Shown in pieces: positions 1,461-58,859 of a stretch of DNA of 64,000 nt. Below the pieces are notes generated by a model that was given only the letters and a program-made list of their open reading frames with translations, did no database searches and was not told where the DNA came from. The translations under genes and the position numbers were made by a program. The stretch's first letter is position 1, and every line of letters begins with the position of its first letter. The DNA is from a virus, in the IMG/VR virus record IMGVR_UViG_3300046747_000566, positions 1 through 64,000 of that record. One strand, written 5' to 3'.

Positions 1461-1660
1461 GTTCCTCCTTTGCGACGCGCTAATTCTTTATCGACACTAC
1501 GGAATTGTCTGTACCAAGCGACAACATTTTCTTCATCTGCATCTTCACATCCATACTCATCGCGGATTGCTTGTAGCGCTTCATCGCGTTCCTTGTGGAG
1601 CTCTTCAGATGAGGAGAATTTACTCACTAAATCATGCAGCATCCTGTCTAGTATTCTCAT
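1457..1660 (-). CDS. hypothetical early protein
   Basis: ORF track. 4-nt overlap with the downstream gene. Confidence 0.4.
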   Translation of the reverse strand: MRILDRMLHDLVSKFSSSEELHKERDEALQAIRDEYGCEDADEENVVAWYRQFRSVDKELARRKGGT

Positions 1661-9159: not shown

Positions 9160-9269
9160 TCTAGGAACAATCTTGCATAAGATGCTTAAAGACTAACAAC
9201 TGAAGAGAGCCTAAGATTTTTTCTAGGCTCTTATTGCATAAGCAAATAGGAAAACAAATAGCCATAAAC

Positions 9270-9298
9270 TTGCTTCTGATGCGGGTTTATGGTATAAT
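9270..9298 (+). promoter_or_regulatory. HNH cassette promoter, copy 1
   Basis: TTGCTT, 17 nt, TATAAT. Flanked by CCATAAAC/GTTTATGG inverted repeat. Confidence 0.55.
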
Positions 9299-9320
9299 TG
9301 GATGAGTTAAAAATGTTGTT

Positions 9321-9349
9321 GCCCCGGCGTTGCTGAAACAACCCAGGGC
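9321..9349 (+). ncRNA. conserved 5' UTR hairpin, copy 1
   Basis: GCCCCGGCGTTG-CTGAAA-CAACCCAGGGC. Confidence 0.5.
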
Positions 9350-9379
9350 GTGAGCTAAACCTGTTTCGGAGGTCTAACC

Positions 9380-10225
9380 ATGAACAGTCTATACCTTTTT
9401 CCCCCAGATGACAATACCCCAATGAAAACCTGTAAAGGTATTTGTGGGCGTACTCTTCCTGCAACTCCTGAGTATTTTTACAAGCACCCACAATGTAAAG
9501 ACGGATTAATGGGAAAATGCAAGAAATGTCGTGATATCCCAAACGTGGTTCCAGTTGCTCCAGATGGGCATAAAATATGTAAAGGCCCGTGTGGGCGTAC
9601 ACTGCCTGCCACTCTCGAATTTTGGTATCACAAAGATAGAGGCAAATATGGCCTGAATTCACACTGCAAGGAATGTATAGCGGAAGAATGGAAGTGGAGT
9701 GATCGGCATCCTGACACAAAGAAACGCATGATAGCGAAGCAAAAAGAATATCAAGCACGCCCTGAAGCAAGAAACAAAAAACGTGCCCATGATAAGTTGT
9801 ATCACGCACGGCCTGAAATAAAAAAGCATAAACAAGAATATTCTAAAGAGTATCGATCTCTTCCAGAGACAAAAGAGCACGGAAAAGAGTACCGGAGACG
9901 TCCTGAGATAAAAGAGTATAATAGAATACAGCGACACAAACGGCGTGCCCTTCAAGGATCTATCGGAGGGACTCACACGCCTGAGCAGATACAGGACCAG
10001 TTAAAAAGACAGAAGCATAAGTGTTATTATTGCCGCAAGAGATTTGAAAAGAAAGATAGCAGGTACATTTATCACATTGAGCACACTTTCCCCCTTTCTC
10101 GTGTTGCAGGTACCGACATTCCCGCCAATAGCATGGGCTACTTGGTGCTAGCATGTCCTTCATGTAACAGCAGCAAAGGCAACAAGTTCCCCTGGGAATG
10201 GCCTGAAGGTGGTAGATTGTGCTGA
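9380..10225 (+). CDS. HNH endonuclease with N-terminal CxxC...CxxC modules
   Basis: Modules CKGICGRTLPATPEYF...CKKC and CKGPCGRTLPATLEFW...CKEC. HNH core YHIEHTFPLS...LACPSCNSSKGNK. Confidence 0.8.
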   Translation: MNSLYLFPPDDNTPMKTCKGICGRTLPATPEYFYKHPQCKDGLMGKCKKCRDIPNVVPVAPDGHKICKGPCGRTLPATLEFWYHKDRGKYGLNSHCKECIAEEWKWSDRHPDTKKRMIAKQKEYQARPEARNKKRAHDKLYHARPEIKKHKQEYSKEYRSLPETKEHGKEYRRRPEIKEYNRIQRHKRRALQGSIGGTHTPEQIQDQLKRQKHKCYYCRKRFEKKDSRYIYHIEHTFPLSRVAGTDIPANSMGYLVLACPSCNSSKGNKFPWEWPEGGRLC

Positions 10226-19007: not shown

Positions 19008-19346
19008 CTAACTACCTGACACTATGTCTTTACCAATGAGTTGATTGATTTCGAATACCGCTGCTTCTATGGCTATGTCGATGACATCAGGAGGTGGAAC
19101 CGGAAGTCCAAATTCGCGAAACAACACCATGATCTGCTGTACCGCTTGAGCCTTCTTTTGAGCGTTGTCAAGCGTTGTGCCTTCCTGCTCTACCTTTTTT
19201 ACAACTAATAGCGCAAACTGCTGAAGAGCTAGACGTGTGTGAGCTGGCAAGCGCTGTATGAGGTAGTGAAACAGCCAAAATGCTATTCCAATCATAACAG
19301 GCCATAAGAAAAACAACACACTATTAATCCACTGAGCTTGTGACAT
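19008..19346 (-). CDS. holin, LL-H-like
   Basis: GGAGG RBS. N-terminal TM segment, then the VEQEG...AQKKAQAV...IEAAV pattern. Confidence 0.55.
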   Translation of the reverse strand: MSQAQWINSVLFFLWPVMIGIAFWLFHYLIQRLPAHTRLALQQFALLVVKKVEQEGTTLDNAQKKAQAVQQIMVLFREFGLPVPPPDVIDIAIEAAVFEINQLIGKDIVSGS

Positions 19347-19418
19347 GATAACCTCCGATATTAGGATGCAACAAGGACAACCCAAGAAACCAATGCTAAA
19401 CATTAATAGTCCATAAAC

Positions 19419-19447
19419 TTGCTTCAGAGGCTGGTTTATGGTATACT
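19419..19447 (+). promoter_or_regulatory. HNH cassette promoter, copy 2
   Basis: TTGCTT, 17 nt, TATACT. Same CCATAAAC/GTTTATGG flank as copy 1. Confidence 0.55.
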
Positions 19448-19472
19448 GATGAGGTCAAATTGACATGTGTTT

Positions 19473-19502
19473 GGCCCCGCGTTGCTAGTAACAACCGGAG
19501 CC
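19473..19502 (+). ncRNA. conserved 5' UTR hairpin, copy 2
   Basis: GGCCCCGCGTTG-CTAGTAA-CAACCGGAGCC. Two stem pairs are swapped compensatorily relative to copies 1 and 3. Confidence 0.5.
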
Positions 19503-19515
19503 GTGATAACAGAAA

Positions 19516-20340
19516 GTGACTTCCGTTATGTCTAACAGTATACCAGAAAAAGCCTCTCAGTATACCTTTAATTTTGACGCGCTCATCAGTACGCAACACA
19601 TTGAAGATGCGGTTCATAACAATCCTCCTTTTGAGAGACAGTGTTCCCAATGTCTCAAAACAAAGCCTCTTTCCGAATTTGAAGCACGCAAAAACAGTAA
19701 AAATAAACGATGTAAAGTCTGTATCAATAAATACGGCTATCAGGCGAATCTTCAAAAACAATGTGACACGTGCCTTGAGGTGAAATCGCCCTCTGAATTT
19801 GGAGCAAATTCGAAGTACGGGAGAAACCAATCCTGTAAAGTTTGTGTCAAGAAAGCTAAATATCACAAGGCGGTTGCAGAGCCAGGGCAGACCAAACAGT
19901 GCACTGGCTGTCTTGAAACAAAACCTATCACCTCTTTTTCCCCTGCTGCATCTGGTCGCTATGGTGTCAGGGGTGCTTGTAAGGTGTGTTGTACTGCCTA
20001 CCAAAAAGAACGGTACAGAACAGGCCCAAAAACCCCGAAAAAGCGCAATCCAAATTCCGGAAGAATTCACAAACTCAGAACGGAGTTTGGTATGACCCTT
20101 GCTGATTATGAGAAAATGTTTATTCAGCAGAAAGGAGTTTGTGCCATTTGTGGCAATCCTGAAAAATCGAGGAATCCCAAAACAGGAAAGATCAAGAATT
20201 TGAGCGTAGACCATTGTCACACCACAGGTACGATACGAGGACTCCTTTGTCTCAATTGCAATCATATGCTTGGCAGTGGTCAAGACACCCCTGATCTTCT
20301 GAGGAAAGGCGCGGATTACCTCGAAAAGTACAGCAAGTAG
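19516..20340 (+). CDS. endonuclease VII-type HNH nuclease with three CxxC...CxxC modules (start GTG 19516 or ATG 19528)
   Basis: Modules CSQCLKTKPLSEF..CKVC, CDTCLEVKSPSEF..CKVC and CTGCLETKPITSF..CKVC. Core SVDHCHTTGTIRGLLCLNCNHMLG. Confidence 0.8.
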   Translation: MTSVMSNSIPEKASQYTFNFDALISTQHIEDAVHNNPPFERQCSQCLKTKPLSEFEARKNSKNKRCKVCINKYGYQANLQKQCDTCLEVKSPSEFGANSKYGRNQSCKVCVKKAKYHKAVAEPGQTKQCTGCLETKPITSFSPAASGRYGVRGACKVCCTAYQKERYRTGPKTPKKRNPNSGRIHKLRTEFGMTLADYEKMFIQQKGVCAICGNPEKSRNPKTGKIKNLSVDHCHTTGTIRGLLCLNCNHMLGSGQDTPDLLRKGADYLEKYSK

Positions 20341-20415
20341 CGATATGTTCTTGGAGGGGAGGTAACTGTTATCTTCCTTCCTCATGTATTCCTCTTCTTT
20401 CATCTCAGGTCCCCA

Positions 20416-26723: not shown

Positions 26724-26761
26724 AATCCCTCATTTCTAGACATGCTAAATAGCCCATAGAG

Positions 26762-26790
26762 TTGCTCTATAGGCTGGTTCGTGGTATAAT
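26762..26790 (+). promoter_or_regulatory. HNH cassette promoter, copy 3
   Basis: TTGCTC, 17 nt, TATAAT. Confidence 0.55.
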
Positions 26791-26815
26791 AAGCTCATAA
26801 ATTGAGCATGTTTTT

Positions 26816-26845
26816 GCCCCGGCGTTGCTACTAACAACCCAGGGC
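26816..26845 (+). ncRNA. conserved 5' UTR hairpin, copy 3
   Basis: GCCCCGGCGTTG-CTACTAA-CAACCCAGGGC. Confidence 0.5.
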
Positions 26846-26873
26846 GTGACGACAAGAAAGGTGATTTCTTATC

Positions 26874-28136
26874 ATGACTGAATTGTACCATGCTGGTCAA
26901 CTGTCCCAGCAGTCCCTCTTCTCTGATGCTGATTACATCGAACTCCAGCAGTTGACTTTGATTAACCCCACTGAAGACACTGCTACTCTTCCCCAGACAT
27001 CGAGCAAAATCAAGAGATGCTCCAAATGCAAAGAGTATAAGACTCTTGATGATTTTTATCGCAACAAGAACGCAAGGTTTGATGGACATGATCATCAATG
27101 CAAGGATTGTAGAAGCAAATATCGCTATGAGCATGTTGACTTGCAAAAAGAGCGAAACAGGCAAAGATATCTTGATCCCGTACGCCGTGAAGCTCATAAT
27201 TCTCAATGCAGAGAAAAGCGTCTTCGAGAAAATCCTCCTCCACCGCCACCCAAACGAGGACATAAGGTTTGTAATGAATGCAATCTGGAAAAGTCTCTTG
27301 CTGAATTTAATAAGTCCTCTGGGATTAAAGATGGGTATGCCGGTAAATGCAAAGAATGCCATCGTGAATATTACCGAAAATATCAAGAAGCACAGATGGC
27401 TAAACCTCCACAGCCATTGTCTGAATCCAAGGTATGCAGACAATGTGGAGAAGAGAAGTCTATTGATCAGTACCATTTCAGGGATAACAAACCTCTTGCC
27501 CGTTGCAAAGAATGCATTCGTGCTTATGATAGATCGAGAGATCTTCAACATAATCCTCGTAAAAACCCTCCTAGACCACGCGCTACCAATGAGGGCTATA
27601 AAGTTTGCACTATCTGTCTCACAGAAAAACGATTTACAGAATTTAACAAGAACACACAGCAGAAAGACGGATATTCTGGCAAGTGCCGAGAATGCACGAA
27701 AGAACGCTGGAAGAACCGAACACCAGAGGAGAAAAAGGCTCAAAGACAAAGACGATATCAGCTTGAAGAAGCAAGAAGAGACGCGATAAGGGCTTACGAT
27801 CAAGTAAGACTTCATACCCCTCAACGTCAAATGTATAGGCATAATCATGCAAACAGGCGAAAGGCCATTATGAACGGTAATTATGCTGAAGAGGTTAATT
27901 ATCAGCGCATTATTGATAGAGAGGGATATCATTGCTATATATGTAATCAAGACATCCTCCCTCATCACAAACTTGCTTTTGATCATTTTATACCTCTTTT
28001 GCCTAGAAATGGAGACCCAATAGGGACTCACACAGAAGATAACCTATACCCCACGCATCGGGAATGTAATGCCAGAAAGTCAAATCGAAAATTTGAAGAT
28101 CTAACAGACTTCGATAAGCGAGGTCCTGATAACTAA
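26874..28136 (+). CDS. HNH endonuclease with four CxxC...CxxC modules
   Basis: Modules CSKCKEYKTLDDF..CKDC, CNECNLEKSLAEF..CKEC, CRQCGEEKSIDQY..CKEC and CTICLTEKRFTEF..CREC. Core FDHFIPL...HRECNARKSN. Confidence 0.8.
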   Translation: MTELYHAGQLSQQSLFSDADYIELQQLTLINPTEDTATLPQTSSKIKRCSKCKEYKTLDDFYRNKNARFDGHDHQCKDCRSKYRYEHVDLQKERNRQRYLDPVRREAHNSQCREKRLRENPPPPPPKRGHKVCNECNLEKSLAEFNKSSGIKDGYAGKCKECHREYYRKYQEAQMAKPPQPLSESKVCRQCGEEKSIDQYHFRDNKPLARCKECIRAYDRSRDLQHNPRKNPPRPRATNEGYKVCTICLTEKRFTEFNKNTQQKDGYSGKCRECTKERWKNRTPEEKKAQRQRRYQLEEARRDAIRAYDQVRLHTPQRQMYRHNHANRRKAIMNGNYAEEVNYQRIIDREGYHCYICNQDILPHHKLAFDHFIPLLPRNGDPIGTHTEDNLYPTHRECNARKSNRKFEDLTDFDKRGPDN

Positions 28137-51582: not shown

Positions 51583-51815
51583 AATGACCTCACCTCCAAG
51601 TCAAACATTTCCCCCTCATCTCCATCGGGATCGATCGGGCCCATGATGTCATTCCATGTGAGTTTTTCGAGATCCTCCTGCTTATAGCAGCCCACTCCGT
51701 CTCGTTTGTATGCTTTTAAGCGCTTGCATCTTACCAAATCCTTAAATCGCTCTAGATTGATAGAGATATATTCTGCTGCCTTTTCTTCAGTGAGCAATAT
51801 TACTTTCATCGCCAT
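51579..51815 (-). CDS. small protein between terL and portal
   Basis: ORF track. Overlaps both neighbours. Confidence 0.4.
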   Translation of the reverse strand: MAMKVILLTEEKAAEYISINLERFKDLVRCKRLKAYKRDGVGCYKQEDLEKLTWNDIMGPIDPDGDEGEMFDLEVRSL

Positions 51816-53338
51816 TCCTCCAATTCTTCTTCATCCACTTCTATAATGCCTTTATCTTCAAAAATAGATGGAATAGGTTTACCGCTACTTGGTGCTCGTT
51901 CGGGAGATGCGGAGACAGACTCATCATTCATGTCTTCAGCAGACCAGATCATAGGACCATCAGGCACAAGATATAATTCATTCATTGCGCCACTAGAAGC
52001 GTCAACAGGATCATCATGGATAGCAGGGTTAGGAAATGCGCACAAGAAGTTAATAAGACCTTTATTCCAGTGGGCTCTAATCATGCCTACATTGCCAAAC
52101 TTGGCTTGTGCTGACATGGTGTTAGCTCTTAGTTCTTTTGATCCCCCAGGGAGAACACCATCAACATCATATCCAGGTAGCACTTTGGTCACAAGATTGT
52201 AGATATAGCTTTTTCCTGAAGCTCCAGGCTCTTGCTCAATTCGAATGATACTATCACGCCCGTCTTTAGCGGCCATCTCTTTGAGGAGGTCTTCGACTCC
52301 TCCAGGATCACGCCTTTCCCAAATGGCGTGGAGGATTACATAGCGTGGATAACACCCTTCCTTGCGACGGGCCATAAGAACACCCGCTGTATAGTCAGGG
52401 CCATTCTTCTTAGAATTGGACTTCACTTCTTCAGTAGCAGCAAGGTCCCAGAACCGGACTTTGCGTTCAATATCATCAGGTACACCATCAAGAATGCGCT
52501 TTTCAAACCATTCCCGTCTAAATTTCTTGCCAGAGGGACGAGCTGACCAATCCCCAAACTTTAACCGTTGTTTCTCTACCTCGGGTAAAGCGTCTAGTCC
52601 TGCTTCATATCCAGGATCTTTCTCCATCAGGATTTTATTATCATAGAGATTGGCAAAAACAAAGGTTATAGAGATTGCATTTTTCTCATCAGAGTTACAC
52701 CACCTGATGTTTTCATCCTCTACCACAAAATAGCGAACTTCCCCGCTCTCAGCTTTCTTGCGTAAGTGCTCAGGAGTGTTGCTATTTCTCTCAGGATCTT
52801 CCCACTCATCATCTACCCACGGTGCTAGCACAACTTTGACCCATGACTCAGGATCAGGATTAGTGTAAGCACGCATGTATGGTCTTACGCCTGATAGAGA
52901 GCGGTTTCTGGAGAAGAGATAAAAGAACTGAGCAAAGGACATCTCAGTGACTTCATCAACCTCAATAAGTGGTATCTCACTACCTTTCCAAGATTGCACG
53001 TCACTCTCGTATTGCATATATGCAAACTTGATCGTAGCACCACTAGGGAATGTCCATTGAAGCTCTGACTTGTTTGGCTTGCCACCTAATTGGGGATATA
53101 TTTCAAAGGAACGTCTCCAGAGACCCCCAGGAGCTATGAGTTGTCTGTGATACTTTCTGAAGATAACTGCTTGAAATTCAGGATTGTCAATGTGATATGT
53201 TGGTTCCAACAAACACGCATACGACTTCCCGCCACCAGCTGCGCCGCCATAAAATGCAATACGGGTATTGGCTCTCAAGAATAACTCTTGAGGTCCTGGC
53301 TGTGGCTTAATCGGTTGTGTAATCGTGGCTGTTACCAA
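51806..53338 (-). CDS. terL: terminase large subunit
   Basis: Walker A FYGGAAGGGKSY. Nuclease-like C-terminal half. Position. Confidence 0.8.
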   Translation of the reverse strand: MVTATITQPIKPQPGPQELFLRANTRIAFYGGAAGGGKSYACLLEPTYHIDNPEFQAVIFRKYHRQLIAPGGLWRRSFEIYPQLGGKPNKSELQWTFPSGATIKFAYMQYESDVQSWKGSEIPLIEVDEVTEMSFAQFFYLFSRNRSLSGVRPYMRAYTNPDPESWVKVVLAPWVDDEWEDPERNSNTPEHLRKKAESGEVRYFVVEDENIRWCNSDEKNAISITFVFANLYDNKILMEKDPGYEAGLDALPEVEKQRLKFGDWSARPSGKKFRREWFEKRILDGVPDDIERKVRFWDLAATEEVKSNSKKNGPDYTAGVLMARRKEGCYPRYVILHAIWERRDPGGVEDLLKEMAAKDGRDSIIRIEQEPGASGKSYIYNLVTKVLPGYDVDGVLPGGSKELRANTMSAQAKFGNVGMIRAHWNKGLINFLCAFPNPAIHDDPVDASSGAMNELYLVPDGPMIWSAEDMNDESVSASPERAPSSGKPIPSIFEDKGIIEVDEEELEEWR

Positions 53339-56159: not shown

Positions 56160-58859
56160 GTGCGAGGCAAACGGATATACTCAATGGGAAGAGAGCATGA
56201 ACGCGAGCGGAGGCCGCGAGGAGGAAAGGAACACACCGTGTTGACTGACGATAGTTTTCACGCCTGGTGCTTGCAGAACAAGATTCCTGCGGAGACTGAA
56301 GCCTACATTGAGCGTATTCGTTCGTCGCAGCCTGTGCGAAAGGTGCGCAGCCGCGCTTCTAACGTCAGTGGGCGGTATCCTTCTGTCAAAATGGGCCGCT
56401 CCATCCAATTTGAAAGCCGCCACGTTGAGTTGTGGGGAATCTACGAGATGGAGCGAGATGACGATGTGCTGGAATACTACGATCAACCCACCCGTATCCA
56501 GCTTCAGTATCGCGCCCGCTCTGGTCGCAAGACGACCCAATGGCATACTCCAGATTTCTTCGTCATTCGGCAACACTCCGCTGGCTTTGAAGAGTGGAAG
56601 CCCGTTACTGCCCTGGATACGCTTACGGTGACGATGCCGGAGCGGTACCAAAGCGAAACATCAGGCGGCTGGCGCTGTCCCCCTGGAGAAAGCGCAGCAC
56701 AGGTGCATGGCTTGTTCTATCGGGTACGGACCAATGCAGAGGTCCATCCGCTCGTGATCCAAAATCTCAAGTTTCTCCAAGATTTCTGGATTCACCCATA
56801 CGAAGTTCCACCTGAGCAAGAAGCTCAAGTACTGACACTGGTCAGCACCGCTCCAGGGATCACGGTCCGTCAACTCCAGGAAGCCTGCCCTGATCCGCCT
56901 GTCGATGTGCTTTGGGCACTGCTGACCGATCAGCGTCTCTTTACCGATTTGTCTGCTTCCTCGCTCATGCAATGGGACCAAATACGTCTCTTCCGCTCCC
57001 AGGCTGAAGCAGAGGAGGCTCGTTCTCGTGCAGTGAGGTTTTCGCAGCCGATTCCGTTGTTTACTCGACTGAGCTTCGACGGGCGACTGTGGGAAGCAGA
57101 AAAACAGGGAGATCAGGTTGTCTTGCGCCCAGAAGTTGGCGTCGCTGTCACCTTGCCGACAACCCAAGTGCAACACCTTCTCGCCACGGGTGCTGCCACG
57201 CTCGTCGGGGAGGCTACCCCATCCAAACTTTCCGAGGAGGCCAGAACTTTGCTGCTTGGCGCTGGCCCGACTGCTTTAGCTGCTGCCAATCAACGCCTCA
57301 GCACCATCCTGGCATATATGAGCGGCGAAACGGTGACGGTCACGAAACGCTCCGTGCAAAACTGGCTGCGCAACTACCATGAAGCCGAGCGGACATATGG
57401 ATGTGGGTATCTCGGGTTACTGGACAAATCAGCGCGTCGTGGCAACCGAGCACCTCGCGTAGACGCGGCATCAAAACAGCTTCTGGAAACCGTTCTTCGT
57501 ACCCATTACGCGGTACCTCAAGCGAAACGTCGCCCTGCCGTCTATGCCCTCTACCGTGAGGAATGCGTCAAACAGCATGTTTCCCCTGTCAGTCAAGCCA
57601 CTTTTTATCGGGAATGTGCCCTCTTTACGACACCCGAAGTCACGACAGCCCGGAGGGGCAAGCGTGCTGCTTACGCTGATCAACCCCGCTTTTTCTACCT
57701 GGATCAGACCACTGCGCGTCATGGCGAACGGCCATTTGCTCTCGCACATCTTGATCATACGGAACTCGATATTCTGCTCGTCTCCTCCATCACCGGCAAA
57801 CCGCTGGCAAGGCCTTACGCAACGTTTCTGATTGACGCCTACAGCCGCCGCCTGCTGGCTGTCCATGTCAGTTATGAACCTCCCAGTTATCGGTCAGTGA
57901 TGATGGCCTTTCGACTCTGTGTCCAGCGCTACGGTCGTCTTCCCCAGGAAATCGTGGTCGATCATGGCCCAGAGTTTGGCAGCGTCTATTTTGAAGCATT
58001 ACTCTCCCAGTGCTTTGTGACGAAAATCAACCGACCACCTCAGCAGCCGCATTTTGGGTCCGTGATTGAGCGAATTTTCGGAACCACCACCAGCGAATTC
58101 CTCAATCAGCTCCGAGGCAACACACAAGCCAGTAAAGTGCCTCGCCTCCTTACACGAGAAGTGGACCCCAAACGGCTAGCTGTCTGGACACTGGAACGCT
58201 TTGCAGCACGGCTCACCGAATATGTCTACGAGGTCTATGATGTGATGGAGCATCCCGCATTATTCATGAGTCCACGCGAGGCCTACGCGCAAGGGATGGA
58301 GTTGGCAGGAGCGCGGAGTCATCGGGTTATTGCCTACTCTGAAGCGTTCCTGATGCAGACGCGGCCCACCACTCGAACTGGCAAGGCGAAAATCTACCGG
58401 GGACGCGGTATCACCGTTAACGGGTTGCAATACTGGCATGAGCGGATGATGGCCTCGGACATTGCTGGTCAAACTGTGCCAGTGCGTTTTGAACCCTACG
58501 ATATGGGAGTGGTCTATGCCTACATTGATGGCCAATGGCTTGGATGCATTGCCGATGCCTATGCGCAGGTGCATGGGCGCTCCGAAAAGGAGTGGAACCT
58601 GATCCTGGACGAGTGGCGTGAGCACCAGCGCCAACATGCGCAGAAGCGCGTAACACTCAATGGTCCGTTGCTCGCCCAATTTTTGCAACAGGTAGAACAG
58701 GAAGAAACATTCTCACTTCAGCACGAGCGCGAGTACGAAGAGCAGGCCCTGCGTTCGGCCAGCCTCGGATCGCACTCTCGGCTTCCTCGTTCGGATGAGA
58801 TCCCTCCAGAAATTACCATTGATTTGACCAAACTTCGTCACCTTGAGGAGTATCGCTGA
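56160..58859 (+). CDS. tnsAB: TnsA-TnsB fusion transposase (likely start GTG 56238 after GGAGGAAAGG)
   Basis: TnsA-like FESRHVELWGIYEMERDDDVLEYYDQP...WHTPDFFV...FEEWKP. DDE core HLDHTELD ... VVDHGPEF ... GSVIERIFG. Confidence 0.8.
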   Translation: MRGKRIYSMGREHERERRPRGGKEHTVLTDDSFHAWCLQNKIPAETEAYIERIRSSQPVRKVRSRASNVSGRYPSVKMGRSIQFESRHVELWGIYEMERDDDVLEYYDQPTRIQLQYRARSGRKTTQWHTPDFFVIRQHSAGFEEWKPVTALDTLTVTMPERYQSETSGGWRCPPGESAAQVHGLFYRVRTNAEVHPLVIQNLKFLQDFWIHPYEVPPEQEAQVLTLVSTAPGITVRQLQEACPDPPVDVLWALLTDQRLFTDLSASSLMQWDQIRLFRSQAEAEEARSRAVRFSQPIPLFTRLSFDGRLWEAEKQGDQVVLRPEVGVAVTLPTTQVQHLLATGAATLVGEATPSKLSEEARTLLLGAGPTALAAANQRLSTILAYMSGETVTVTKRSVQNWLRNYHEAERTYGCGYLGLLDKSARRGNRAPRVDAASKQLLETVLRTHYAVPQAKRRPAVYALYREECVKQHVSPVSQATFYRECALFTTPEVTTARRGKRAAYADQPRFFYLDQTTARHGERPFALAHLDHTELDILLVSSITGKPLARPYATFLIDAYSRRLLAVHVSYEPPSYRSVMMAFRLCVQRYGRLPQEIVVDHGPEFGSVYFEALLSQCFVTKINRPPQQPHFGSVIERIFGTTTSEFLNQLRGNTQASKVPRLLTREVDPKRLAVWTLERFAARLTEYVYEVYDVMEHPALFMSPREAYAQGMELAGARSHRVIAYSEAFLMQTRPTTRTGKAKIYRGRGITVNGLQYWHERMMASDIAGQTVPVRFEPYDMGVVYAYIDGQWLGCIADAYAQVHGRSEKEWNLILDEWREHQRQHAQKRVTLNGPLLAQFLQQVEQEETFSLQHEREYEEQALRSASLGSHSRLPRSDEIPPEITIDLTKLRHLEEYR

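Follow-up and report, generated by a model that had tools for sequence, protein, structure and literature searches.

Three nuclease genes in a stretch of viral DNA of 64,000 nucleotides (IMG/VR record IMGVR_UViG_3300046747_000566, positions 1 to 64,000; hereafter the window) are preceded by copies of one regulatory module of ∼150 bp, and the question raised by this repetition is what the module does. A preliminary description of the window had seen in it a promoter followed by a hairpin in the 5' untranslated region (UTR), and had proposed a mobile expression cassette or an RNA element bound by the encoded proteins. Here we suggest that each module carries two promoters placed face to face, and that these would yield a two-hairpin cis-antisense RNA over the 5' UTR, in the manner of RNA-OUT of IS10 or art200 of IS200; we rate the chance that this reading is right as about even or slightly better. 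The cassettes are called c1, c2 and c3, and related loci on other contigs are given L-numbers. The three genes are the following.

9380-10225, plus strand: HNH homing-endonuclease gene of c1, 281 amino acids (aa), PF01844, with zinc-ribbon modules
19528-20340, plus strand: EndoVII-type homing-endonuclease gene of c2, 270 aa, Endonuclease_7 (PF02945), E 7e-22
26874-28136, plus strand: HNH homing-endonuclease gene of c3, 420 aa, PF01844, with four zinc-ribbon modules

All three proteins contain repeated CxxC zinc-ribbon modules, and Pfam assigns an HNH core (PF01844) to two of them and Endonuclease_7 (PF02945) to the third, in agreement with the preliminary description. The second gene most likely starts at ATG 19528 and not at GTG 19516 of the mechanically called open reading frame (ORF), because the GTG falls inside a hairpin described below (P2), while L149, L012 and L384 start at the equivalent ATG. 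The recurrence of the unit before the three genes was recovered both by pattern and by covariance model. The model scored 49-52 bits at the three sites, the runner-up in the 64-kb window scoring 16 bits, and the combined promoter pattern had three exact matches, with 0.06 expected. A general phage promoter or terminator was rejected, as the pattern and the model each match the three nuclease genes only. The sense promoters and the inverted repeats around them are located as follows.

9270-9298, plus strand: c1 sense promoter; TTGCTT at 9270-9275, 17-nt spacer, TGG-TATAAT (extended, -10 at 9293-9298)
near 9305, plus strand: predicted c1 sense start
19419-19447, plus strand: c2 sense promoter; TTGCTT at 19419-19424, 17-nt spacer, TGG-TATACT (-10 at 19442-19447)
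26762-26790, plus strand: c3 sense promoter; TTGCTC at 26762-26767, 17-nt spacer, TGG-TATAAT (-10 at 26785-26790)
9262-9292, unstranded: c1 inverted repeat CCATAAAC ... GTTTATGG, enclosing the sense -35 and spacer and containing the AATAGCCATAAAC box
19411-19441, unstranded: c2 inverted repeat CCATAAAC ... GTTTATGG, over the -35 and spacer
26752-26774, unstranded: c3 10-bp hairpin GCCCATAGAG-TTG-CTCTATAGGC, over the -35

The hexamers and the 17-nt spacing are those first reported for all three copies. A TGG-extended -10 is common to them, and the -35 hexamers agree with TTGACA at three of six positions; a generic promoter scan therefore makes no call there. By these features, the predicted sense promoters look like the extended -10 type. 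The description of the AATAG(C/T)CCATA.A box, originally given as the first element of the unit, has to be corrected: the box forms the 5' arm of an inverted repeat within which the -35 and the spacer lie. In the c3 hairpin over the -35, the single mismatch is C·A on the plus strand and U·G on the minus strand.

Downstream of the sense -10, at a distance of 22 nt in c1 and 25 nt in both c2 and c3, as had been reported (22-25 nt), lies the hairpin P1, denoted P1' on the minus strand.

9321-9349, minus strand: c1 P1/P1'; on the plus strand a 7-bp outer stem, bulged C at 9328, 4-bp inner stem and one C·A mismatch
9350-9353, minus strand: c1 single-stranded conserved linker between P1 and P2, GUGA on the plus and UCAC on the minus strand
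19473-19502, minus strand: c2 P1/P1'; bulged C at 19480, with the linker GUGA next (19503-19506)
26816-26845, minus strand: c3 P1/P1'; bulged C at 26823, with the linker GUGA next (26846-26849)

In P1, an invariant bulged C separates an outer stem of 7 bp from an inner stem of 4 bp, the loop measures 6-7 nt, and GUGA comes next. The stem sequences, the two full-pair swaps in c2 and the shifted C·A mismatch agree with the initial account, which had named structure-preserving substitutions in homologous cassettes as a test. Such compensatory double changes occur at all ten P1 base pairs in 36 distinct instances, and 94.7% of the cells are paired, compared with 73% in shuffles and 31-54% in slid controls, with the reservation that part of this set passed a filter requiring the stem and that related cassettes are not independent observations. 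The inner stem covaries (GUUG/CAAC, GAUG/CAUC, GGUA/UACC, AGUA/UACU, AGUG/CACU, GCUG/CAGC, GUAA/UUAC), also among loci recovered via protein homology. Pattern scans covered IMG/VR, GTDB genomes and JGI metagenomes, and did not use the outer stem as a criterion. Still, ∼23 of the 29 metagenome matches have a complementary outer stem, and at many of the loci returned by the scans the flanks of the core are complementary yet vary in sequence between loci. Judged by these sequence comparisons, P1 is a conserved structure and a widespread motif. It had not been recognized initially, and comparison with Rfam gave no family: on both strands of the window, Rfam 15 yielded zero matches at gathering thresholds, and permissive E-values around c1 produced chance-level matches only (E of at least 0.39). 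No plus-strand terminator was called at P1 of c1-c3 by a generic scan, and 3' of P1, GUGA is followed by mixed sequence.

The imperfections of P1 indicate on which strand the structure matters. Among its non-Watson-Crick cells on the plus strand, 16 are C·A or A·C and one is G·U (binomial p = 3e-4). These cells are spread over five stem positions, and C·A on the plus strand corresponds to a G·U wobble on the minus strand. In c1, the C·A mismatch becomes U·G in P1', and an extra U-A pair extends the upper stem to 5 bp. Similarly, the loop ends are conserved as CU..AA, which on the minus strand gives one U·G and one U-A pair; the loop-end U·G pair is predicted by RNAalifold and retained in 24 of 26 sequences. 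Two other explanations of these features were considered and dropped. Mimicry of a tRNA anticodon loop (CU-NNN-AA) was set aside, as the loop length is variable and the loop ends are accounted for by the minus-strand U·G and U-A pairs. That C·A arises because the 3' arm of P1 mimics a Shine-Dalgarno sequence does not hold generally, since CCAGGGC, CAAGAGC and CCGACCG do not match such a mimic.

The same asymmetry is seen in a second hairpin, P2, located between GUGA and the start codon, with the Shine-Dalgarno sequence in or beside its loop. Neither P2 nor the minus-strand -10 box in codons 3-5, treated below, appears in the preliminary description.

9353-9379, minus strand: c1 P2/P2'; minus-strand stem of 10 bp, three of them G·U, with the loop CCGAAAC
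19506-19529, minus strand: c2 P2/P2'; 10 bp with two G·U pairs on the minus strand, broken by an A·C mismatch on the plus strand
26849-26875, minus strand: c3 P2/P2'; on the minus strand 11 bp with two G·U pairs and the loop UCACC

In c1, the sense Shine-Dalgarno sequence GGAGG is at 9368-9372, and its complement CCUCC spans the end of the 5' arm of P2' and the first two loop bases. The P2 stems vary by locus (CATCT/AGATG, CGTTT/AAACG, GACT/AGTC, AACCT/AGGTT, AAAGC/GCTTT, AGAC/GTCT, GAAGAA/TTCTTC). Breaks on the plus strand are A·C, and G·U accounts for 51 of the 310 minus-strand pairs. Folded alone, P2 has a mean energy of -8.2 kcal/mol (z-score -3.3) on the minus strand versus -5.2 kcal/mol (z -0.8) on the plus strand; these values come from per-sequence folding, complemented by inspection and not by a formal covariation count, as MAFFT with RNAalifold did not align P2'. 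When the region from P1 to the start codon is folded, the minus strand is the more stable one in 33 of 33 distinct cassettes, with mean energies of -26.2 versus -20.6 kcal/mol (Wilcoxon p about 5e-7). For c1, c2 and c3, the minus-strand z-scores are -4.0, -5.9 and -5.1, and the plus-strand ones -1.3, -2.7 and -2.7, respectively. The minus-strand fold is uniform, with 1-4 unpaired nucleotides, P2' of 7-11 bp, the conserved UCAC linker and P1'. The P1/P2 structure thus appears to be selected on the minus strand, and what could be annotated as a "5' UTR hairpin" is better read on the opposite strand.

This bears on two explanations that need no antisense RNA. The first is the one implied initially, namely, that P1 acts in the nuclease mRNA as a stabilizing stem-loop, a translational element or a protein-binding site, possibly an autoregulatory one. 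Its place is fixed between the sense promoter and the Shine-Dalgarno sequence, in some cassettes it sits exactly at the predicted 5' end of the mRNA, the -10 box being 5-14 nt from it, and the region does fold on the plus strand too (z about -2); a structured target would, moreover, be needed by an antisense regulator as well. On the other hand, the 16 to 1 excess of C·A over G·U and the plus-strand P2 z-score of -0.8, which is not significant, do not agree with an element acting mainly in the sense 5' UTR, and the conserved loop ends of P1 make sense solely as minus-strand pairs. P1 may have a secondary function in the sense 5' UTR, which would leave the strand bias unexplained. Autoregulation through the CxxC modules is unlikely for a further reason: the module also precedes proteins without a Pfam-detected CxxC zinc-ribbon domain (NUMOD4/HNH_3, T5orf172, LAGLIDADG). 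Overall, we consider the sense-strand explanation unlikely. The second explanation, which we find very improbable, assigns no role to RNA and takes the inverted repeats for a cruciform, a protein operator or the recombination ends of a small mobile module. This would agree with the portability of the module between unrelated genes, with the promoter-proximal inverted repeats, and with the fact that in some cassettes the module ends are inverted copies of each other. However, a DNA-level palindrome cannot account for the mismatch bias, because the bias points to one strand every time; neither a duplex nor a cruciform gives a reason for C·A on one strand (16 of 17 cells in P1) or for the same bias in P2.

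The coding sequences provide a candidate promoter on the minus strand. At codons 3-5 they contain a box A-N-N-N-T-A-(C-C), which on the minus strand reads (GG)TAnnnT, a -10-like pattern. TAnnnT at the expected place, where 6-10 nt separate its 3' end from the start-codon complement, was found in 34 of 37 nuclease-type cassettes, in 10 of 76 hairpin-less EndoVII homologues, and in 11 of 78 window ORFs (Fisher p about 1e-16). The box is read in each of the three frames (in 22, 10 and 2 cassettes, respectively) and falls in 26 tripeptide contexts; therefore, the constraint is on the nucleotides and not on the protein. The frame of the box differs, for example, between CTA-TAC in c1 and AGT-ATA in c2, or TTG-TAC in c3 and ATT-GTA in L123. 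The box is commonly preceded by TGn or GG, and in 16 of 39 cassettes TTGnnn lies 16-18 nt upstream of it as a -35. In the window, the predicted elements are as follows.

9386-9414, minus strand: predicted c1 antisense promoter in codons 3-12; TTGTCA, 17-nt spacer, TAGACT
near 9379-9382, minus strand: predicted c1 antisense start, opposite the start codon
19537-19545, minus strand: predicted c2 antisense extended -10, TGGTATACT, codons 4-6
26882-26890, minus strand: predicted c3 antisense extended -10, TGGTACAAT, codons 3-6 (L-Y-H)

The c1 combination TTGTCA-17-TAGACT was called independently by the generic promoter scan. The predicted minus-strand start falls on or beside the complement of the start codon, that is, at the base of P2'. 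By this geometry, with P2' covering the Shine-Dalgarno sequence, both the ribosome-binding site and the start codon have their complements in the predicted antisense RNA.

The box at codons 3-5 could have another partner. In a helix of the T4 type, the sense -10 region of a read-through RNA would pair with codons 3-10 and mask both the Shine-Dalgarno sequence and the start codon, and translation would be confined to transcripts made from the cassette's own promoter; this mechanism is established for I-TevI, segB and mobE (PMC2988022). Most cassettes do have the symmetry GGTATA ... TATACC, and in c2 the promoter region (19426-19448) and codons 3-10 (19536-19557) form an inverted repeat matching at 21 of 23 positions, L012 at 1792 being similar. 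The duplex energy is also lower within than between cassettes (-15.2 versus -13.3 kcal/mol, p = 0.003). Nevertheless, the two hexamers show no covariation at their variable positions (42 observed versus 40.7 permuted, p = 0.37), the invariant ones are the -10 box positions (T, A, ..., T), and in L009 and L011 the box is kept without an upstream partner. Furthermore, sense read-through is not expected in reversed cassettes, and such a helix leaves the minus-strand bias of P1 and P2 unexplained. We therefore regard this explanation as improbable. The excess of complementarity within cassettes may instead reflect two promoters tuned to the same host, and for the c2 inverted repeat an inverted promoter duplication, a closing helix and module ends are all candidate origins.

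Taken as an antisense device, the module would work as follows. Two host-type promoters would face each other at a distance of ∼90 bp in each ∼150-bp module. The sense one, with a weak -35, 17 nt and a TGn-extended -10, would produce the nuclease mRNA with a 5' UTR of ∼75 nt, while the minus-strand one, with its -10 in codons 3-5, would produce an antisense RNA starting opposite the start codon. The latter would fold into the 5' hairpin P2', carrying the anti-Shine-Dalgarno sequence in or beside its loop, the UCAC linker and the GC-rich bulged P1', and would match the leader of the mRNA, its Shine-Dalgarno sequence and its start codon with full complementarity. Pairing of the two RNAs would block ribosome loading and/or trigger cleavage of the duplex, and convergent transcription would add transcriptional interference. 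As a result, a DNA-cutting selfish gene would be held at a low, buffered level. In this scheme, the covarying structures, their lean towards the minus strand, the conserved minus-strand promoter motif and the portability of the module are seen in the sequences, whereas the firing of the antisense promoter, the position of the RNA end and the repression are what we infer.

The orientation of the cassettes offers a different use for the minus-strand promoter. Both c2 and c3 are reversed within a late operon on the minus strand, and among the related loci about half are reversed in an operon, the others being co-oriented with their neighbors. The promoter could thus restart or maintain transcription past a reversed nuclease gene, with P2' and P1' serving as a protective 5' leader. 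The placement of c2, c3 and about half of the other loci between minus-strand genes speaks for this: a divergent holin gene (19008-19403, minus strand) starts 8 nt to the left of the c2 inverted repeat (19411-19441), and in L384 only 8 nt separate the -35 from the start of a gene that has GGAGG as its Shine-Dalgarno sequence. According to a review of T4 mobile DNA, endonuclease genes that invade can carry promoters affecting their neighbors (PMC2988022). However, the structures and the -10 box are also present in co-oriented cassettes (L009, L012 at 4998, L072, L125 and L142 at 11224), where no minus-strand gene follows, and the U tract found after P1' in a subset of cassettes would halt such a transcript. 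We consider it unlikely that outward transcription is the main purpose of the module, although it is plausible in reversed cassettes and the two uses are compatible.

Several observations weigh against the antisense reading. In reversed cassettes, which are about half of the loci, the minus-strand start could serve a downstream phage gene, such as the holin gene at 19403. The -10-like box could partly reflect a conserved N-terminal peptide, for example, S/T-I-P. The higher complementarity between the promoter region and the coding start within cassettes (p = 0.003) fits a long-range helix as well, and the make-up of the P1 instance set, mentioned above, has to be kept in mind. Finally, A-rich sequence follows P1' in window-type cassettes, which does not mark a 3' end for the antisense RNA.

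Possible ends can be named all the same. On the minus strand, a U tract comes directly after P1' in ∼15 of 41 cassettes, and P1' of L297 was called terminator-like by the generic scan. Among the window copies, only c3 has a terminator-like hairpin nearby.

26793-26807, minus strand: small hairpin P0 of c3, GCTCATAAATTGAGC, followed by TTATTATACC on the minus strand; called terminator-like

In c1, the inverted repeat over the -35 reads on the minus strand as a hairpin followed by CUAUUUGUUUUCC, which makes it a candidate 3' end, and next to the c3 hairpin over the -35 (26752-26774) the minus strand continues with UAUUUAG. The candidates for the window copies are, accordingly, P0' in c3 or the hairpin of the sense -35 with CUAUUU. 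Separately, a hairpin AGAGCCTA ... TAGGCTCT is located at 9205-9235, just upstream of c1, at the end of the early block of the plus strand. It is probably the terminator of this block and possibly a stop for c1 antisense transcription; the generic terminator scan made no call at 9205-9235.

We then considered how far the module extends beyond the window. Elsewhere, the same combination of promoter, hairpin and Shine-Dalgarno sequence precedes at least five unrelated families of nucleases and recombinases, in line with the initial suggestion of a portable cassette. The families downstream include zinc-ribbon HNH, EndoVII, NUMOD4+HNH_3, HNH_3, T5orf172/MUG113, LAGLIDADG_3, large serine recombinase and rolling-circle Rep. 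In particular, the module stands before a large serine recombinase in L220 at 6550 (a 331-kb contig of an Anaerolineae metagenome-assembled genome, MAG) and in L277, before a rolling-circle Rep-like protein in L298, and before a LAGLIDADG protein in L281. As the proteins are unrelated, the module acts independently of the protein that it controls. A motif of a single protein family was rejected: only 3-4 of 80 EndoVII homologues in IMG/VR bear the hairpin, and other families are also preceded by it. The module therefore tracks certain phage lineages and selfish genes in general, and no single protein family. The genome-wide pattern scan gave mostly chance matches, the genuine ones being L172, L193, L220, L237 and L238 only; they come from Ktedonobacterales/Ktedonobacteraceae and Anaerolineae MAGs and from a short contig of a MAG labelled 'delta proteobacterium' (L238). 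Versions of the module with high GC content are found in L320, L355 and L370. In general, contigs carrying the module are binned with, or have markers suggestive of, Chloroflexota, cyanobacteria and other phyla. A further, more tentative proposal, which we consider possible but less than even in probability, is that the whole ∼150-bp stretch from the sense to the antisense promoter is an exchangeable cartridge, with the Shine-Dalgarno sequence and the start of the gene, up to 5-10 codons including the start codon or slightly beyond it, as part of it. It would provide selfish DNA-cutting or recombining genes with their own expression and an antisense brake, and, if reversed, with an outward promoter, and would have spread over at least five unrelated families.

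Some of the loci deserve separate mention. NUMOD4+HNH_3 cassettes lie in DNA with HIP1-like GCGATCGC palindromes (flanks of L286 and L302), and GCGATCG/CGATCGC even makes up the P1 outer stem in L136/L295 and L302. We take the GCGATCGC palindromes at some loci to be the cyanobacterial HIP1 repeat, and their presence suggests a cyanobacterial or cyanophage setting. In a variant subgroup (L046, L047, L099, L138-L140, L143, L193, L274 and L287; for example, L047 at 1486-1511, minus strand), the P1 hairpin is followed by GCGUGACCCA, an A-rich stretch stands before it, and small ORFs without a nuclease domain come after it. An antisense -10 box is missing from these variants; Acinetobacter lwoffii SU1904 scaffold_31 carries one copy, and the subgroup had no match among cultured phages.

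A close parallel to the proposed scheme is IS10/Tn10, where RNA-IN and RNA-OUT are transcribed from face-to-face promoters, and the antisense RNA, a stable stem-loop, is complementary to the 5' end of the mRNA, its ribosome-binding site and its start codon. Common to both are a mobile-element gene, face-to-face promoters and an antisense RNA over the 5' end, the latter being predicted here from sequence. The differences are that the overlap here is ∼75 nt compared with ∼35 nt in IS10, that the antisense RNA would have two hairpins and its promoter would lie inside the first codons of the gene, and that the genes are phage homing endonucleases and recombinases, not a DDE transposase, with no sequence similarity. 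In anatomy, P1 resembles the GC-rich hairpins of plasmid R1 CopA/CopT and of type I toxin-antitoxin systems, which are bulged a few pairs below the loop and whose antisense and target loops are complementary. P1 likewise has a bulge a few pairs below the loop, and fully complementary loops at the Shine-Dalgarno sequence would correspond to a kissing-loop geometry; the resemblance is anatomical only, as there is no replication or toxin context here.

In IS200, the cis-encoded small RNA art200, opposite the 5' UTR of tnpA, blocks translation initiation, and this 5' UTR is itself structured (PMC4513863). Both layers would be similarly present here in one compact module of a selfish element, whereas the sequence and fold are unrelated (with no Rfam hit), the sense structures are weaker, and the module is common to several unrelated families. 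In the homing endonucleases of T4-like phages, control involves a hairpin that sequesters the ribosome-binding site and has a late promoter embedded in it, as well as autorepression by I-TevI (PMC2988022). The genes considered here are also free-standing endonuclease genes, each with a promoter of its own and an RNA structure close to the ribosome-binding site, an arrangement suited to tight control in several layers. However, this site is outside P1, whose end lies 19-39 nt short of the start codon, no hairpin arm holds the sense promoter, and the structures are favored on the antisense strand. With a mean z-score of -0.8, sense-strand P2 does not qualify as a sequestering hairpin of the T4 type. 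The sense -10 region is complementary to codons 3-5, strongly so in c2, without covariation at the variable positions, and the excess of complementarity within cassettes over that between them is modest.

The ways in which homing endonucleases avoid harm are known mainly from T4-like phages, and comprise late promoters, ribosome-binding-site hairpins and autorepression. In the literature that we searched, no antisense-RNA control of free-standing homing-endonuclease genes was found, the scheme being known for transposons. If the antisense reading is true, a portable antisense module would be a different solution, akin to the control of the IS10 and IS200 transposases. The module would also combine a strongly covarying RNA motif outside Rfam with a regulatory unit able to move between unrelated selfish genes together with their first codons, and could give synthetic biology a compact natural part, comprising a bidirectional promoter and an antisense brake, for hosts that have been little studied.

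The window itself is a tailed-phage genome, with a terminase gene (51806-53338, minus strand), tail-fiber and holin genes, and a gene encoding a replication O-like protein; the sequence of this uncultured phage comes from a Logan assembly of SRR26077926. Comparison with the DNA of 50,697 cultured-phage records gave no match to this phage or to the unit, and the HNH protein is at most 35% identical to anything in these records. No tRNA or tmRNA genes were found in positions 1-64000. Three minus-strand ORFs (9231-9809, 19396-20403 and 26745-28031; 192, 335 and 428 aa, respectively) run antisense to the nuclease genes and their leaders. They were rejected as real genes and are most probably shadow ORFs, since Pfam gave no hit and their products are of low complexity. 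In addition, the window carries an 899-aa transposase-like gene (56160-58859, plus strand; phrog_310, E 5e-39). It lies in the sole GC-rich stretch of the window (0.55 versus about 0.46), and may belong to a transposition module like that of Mu or to an inserted element.

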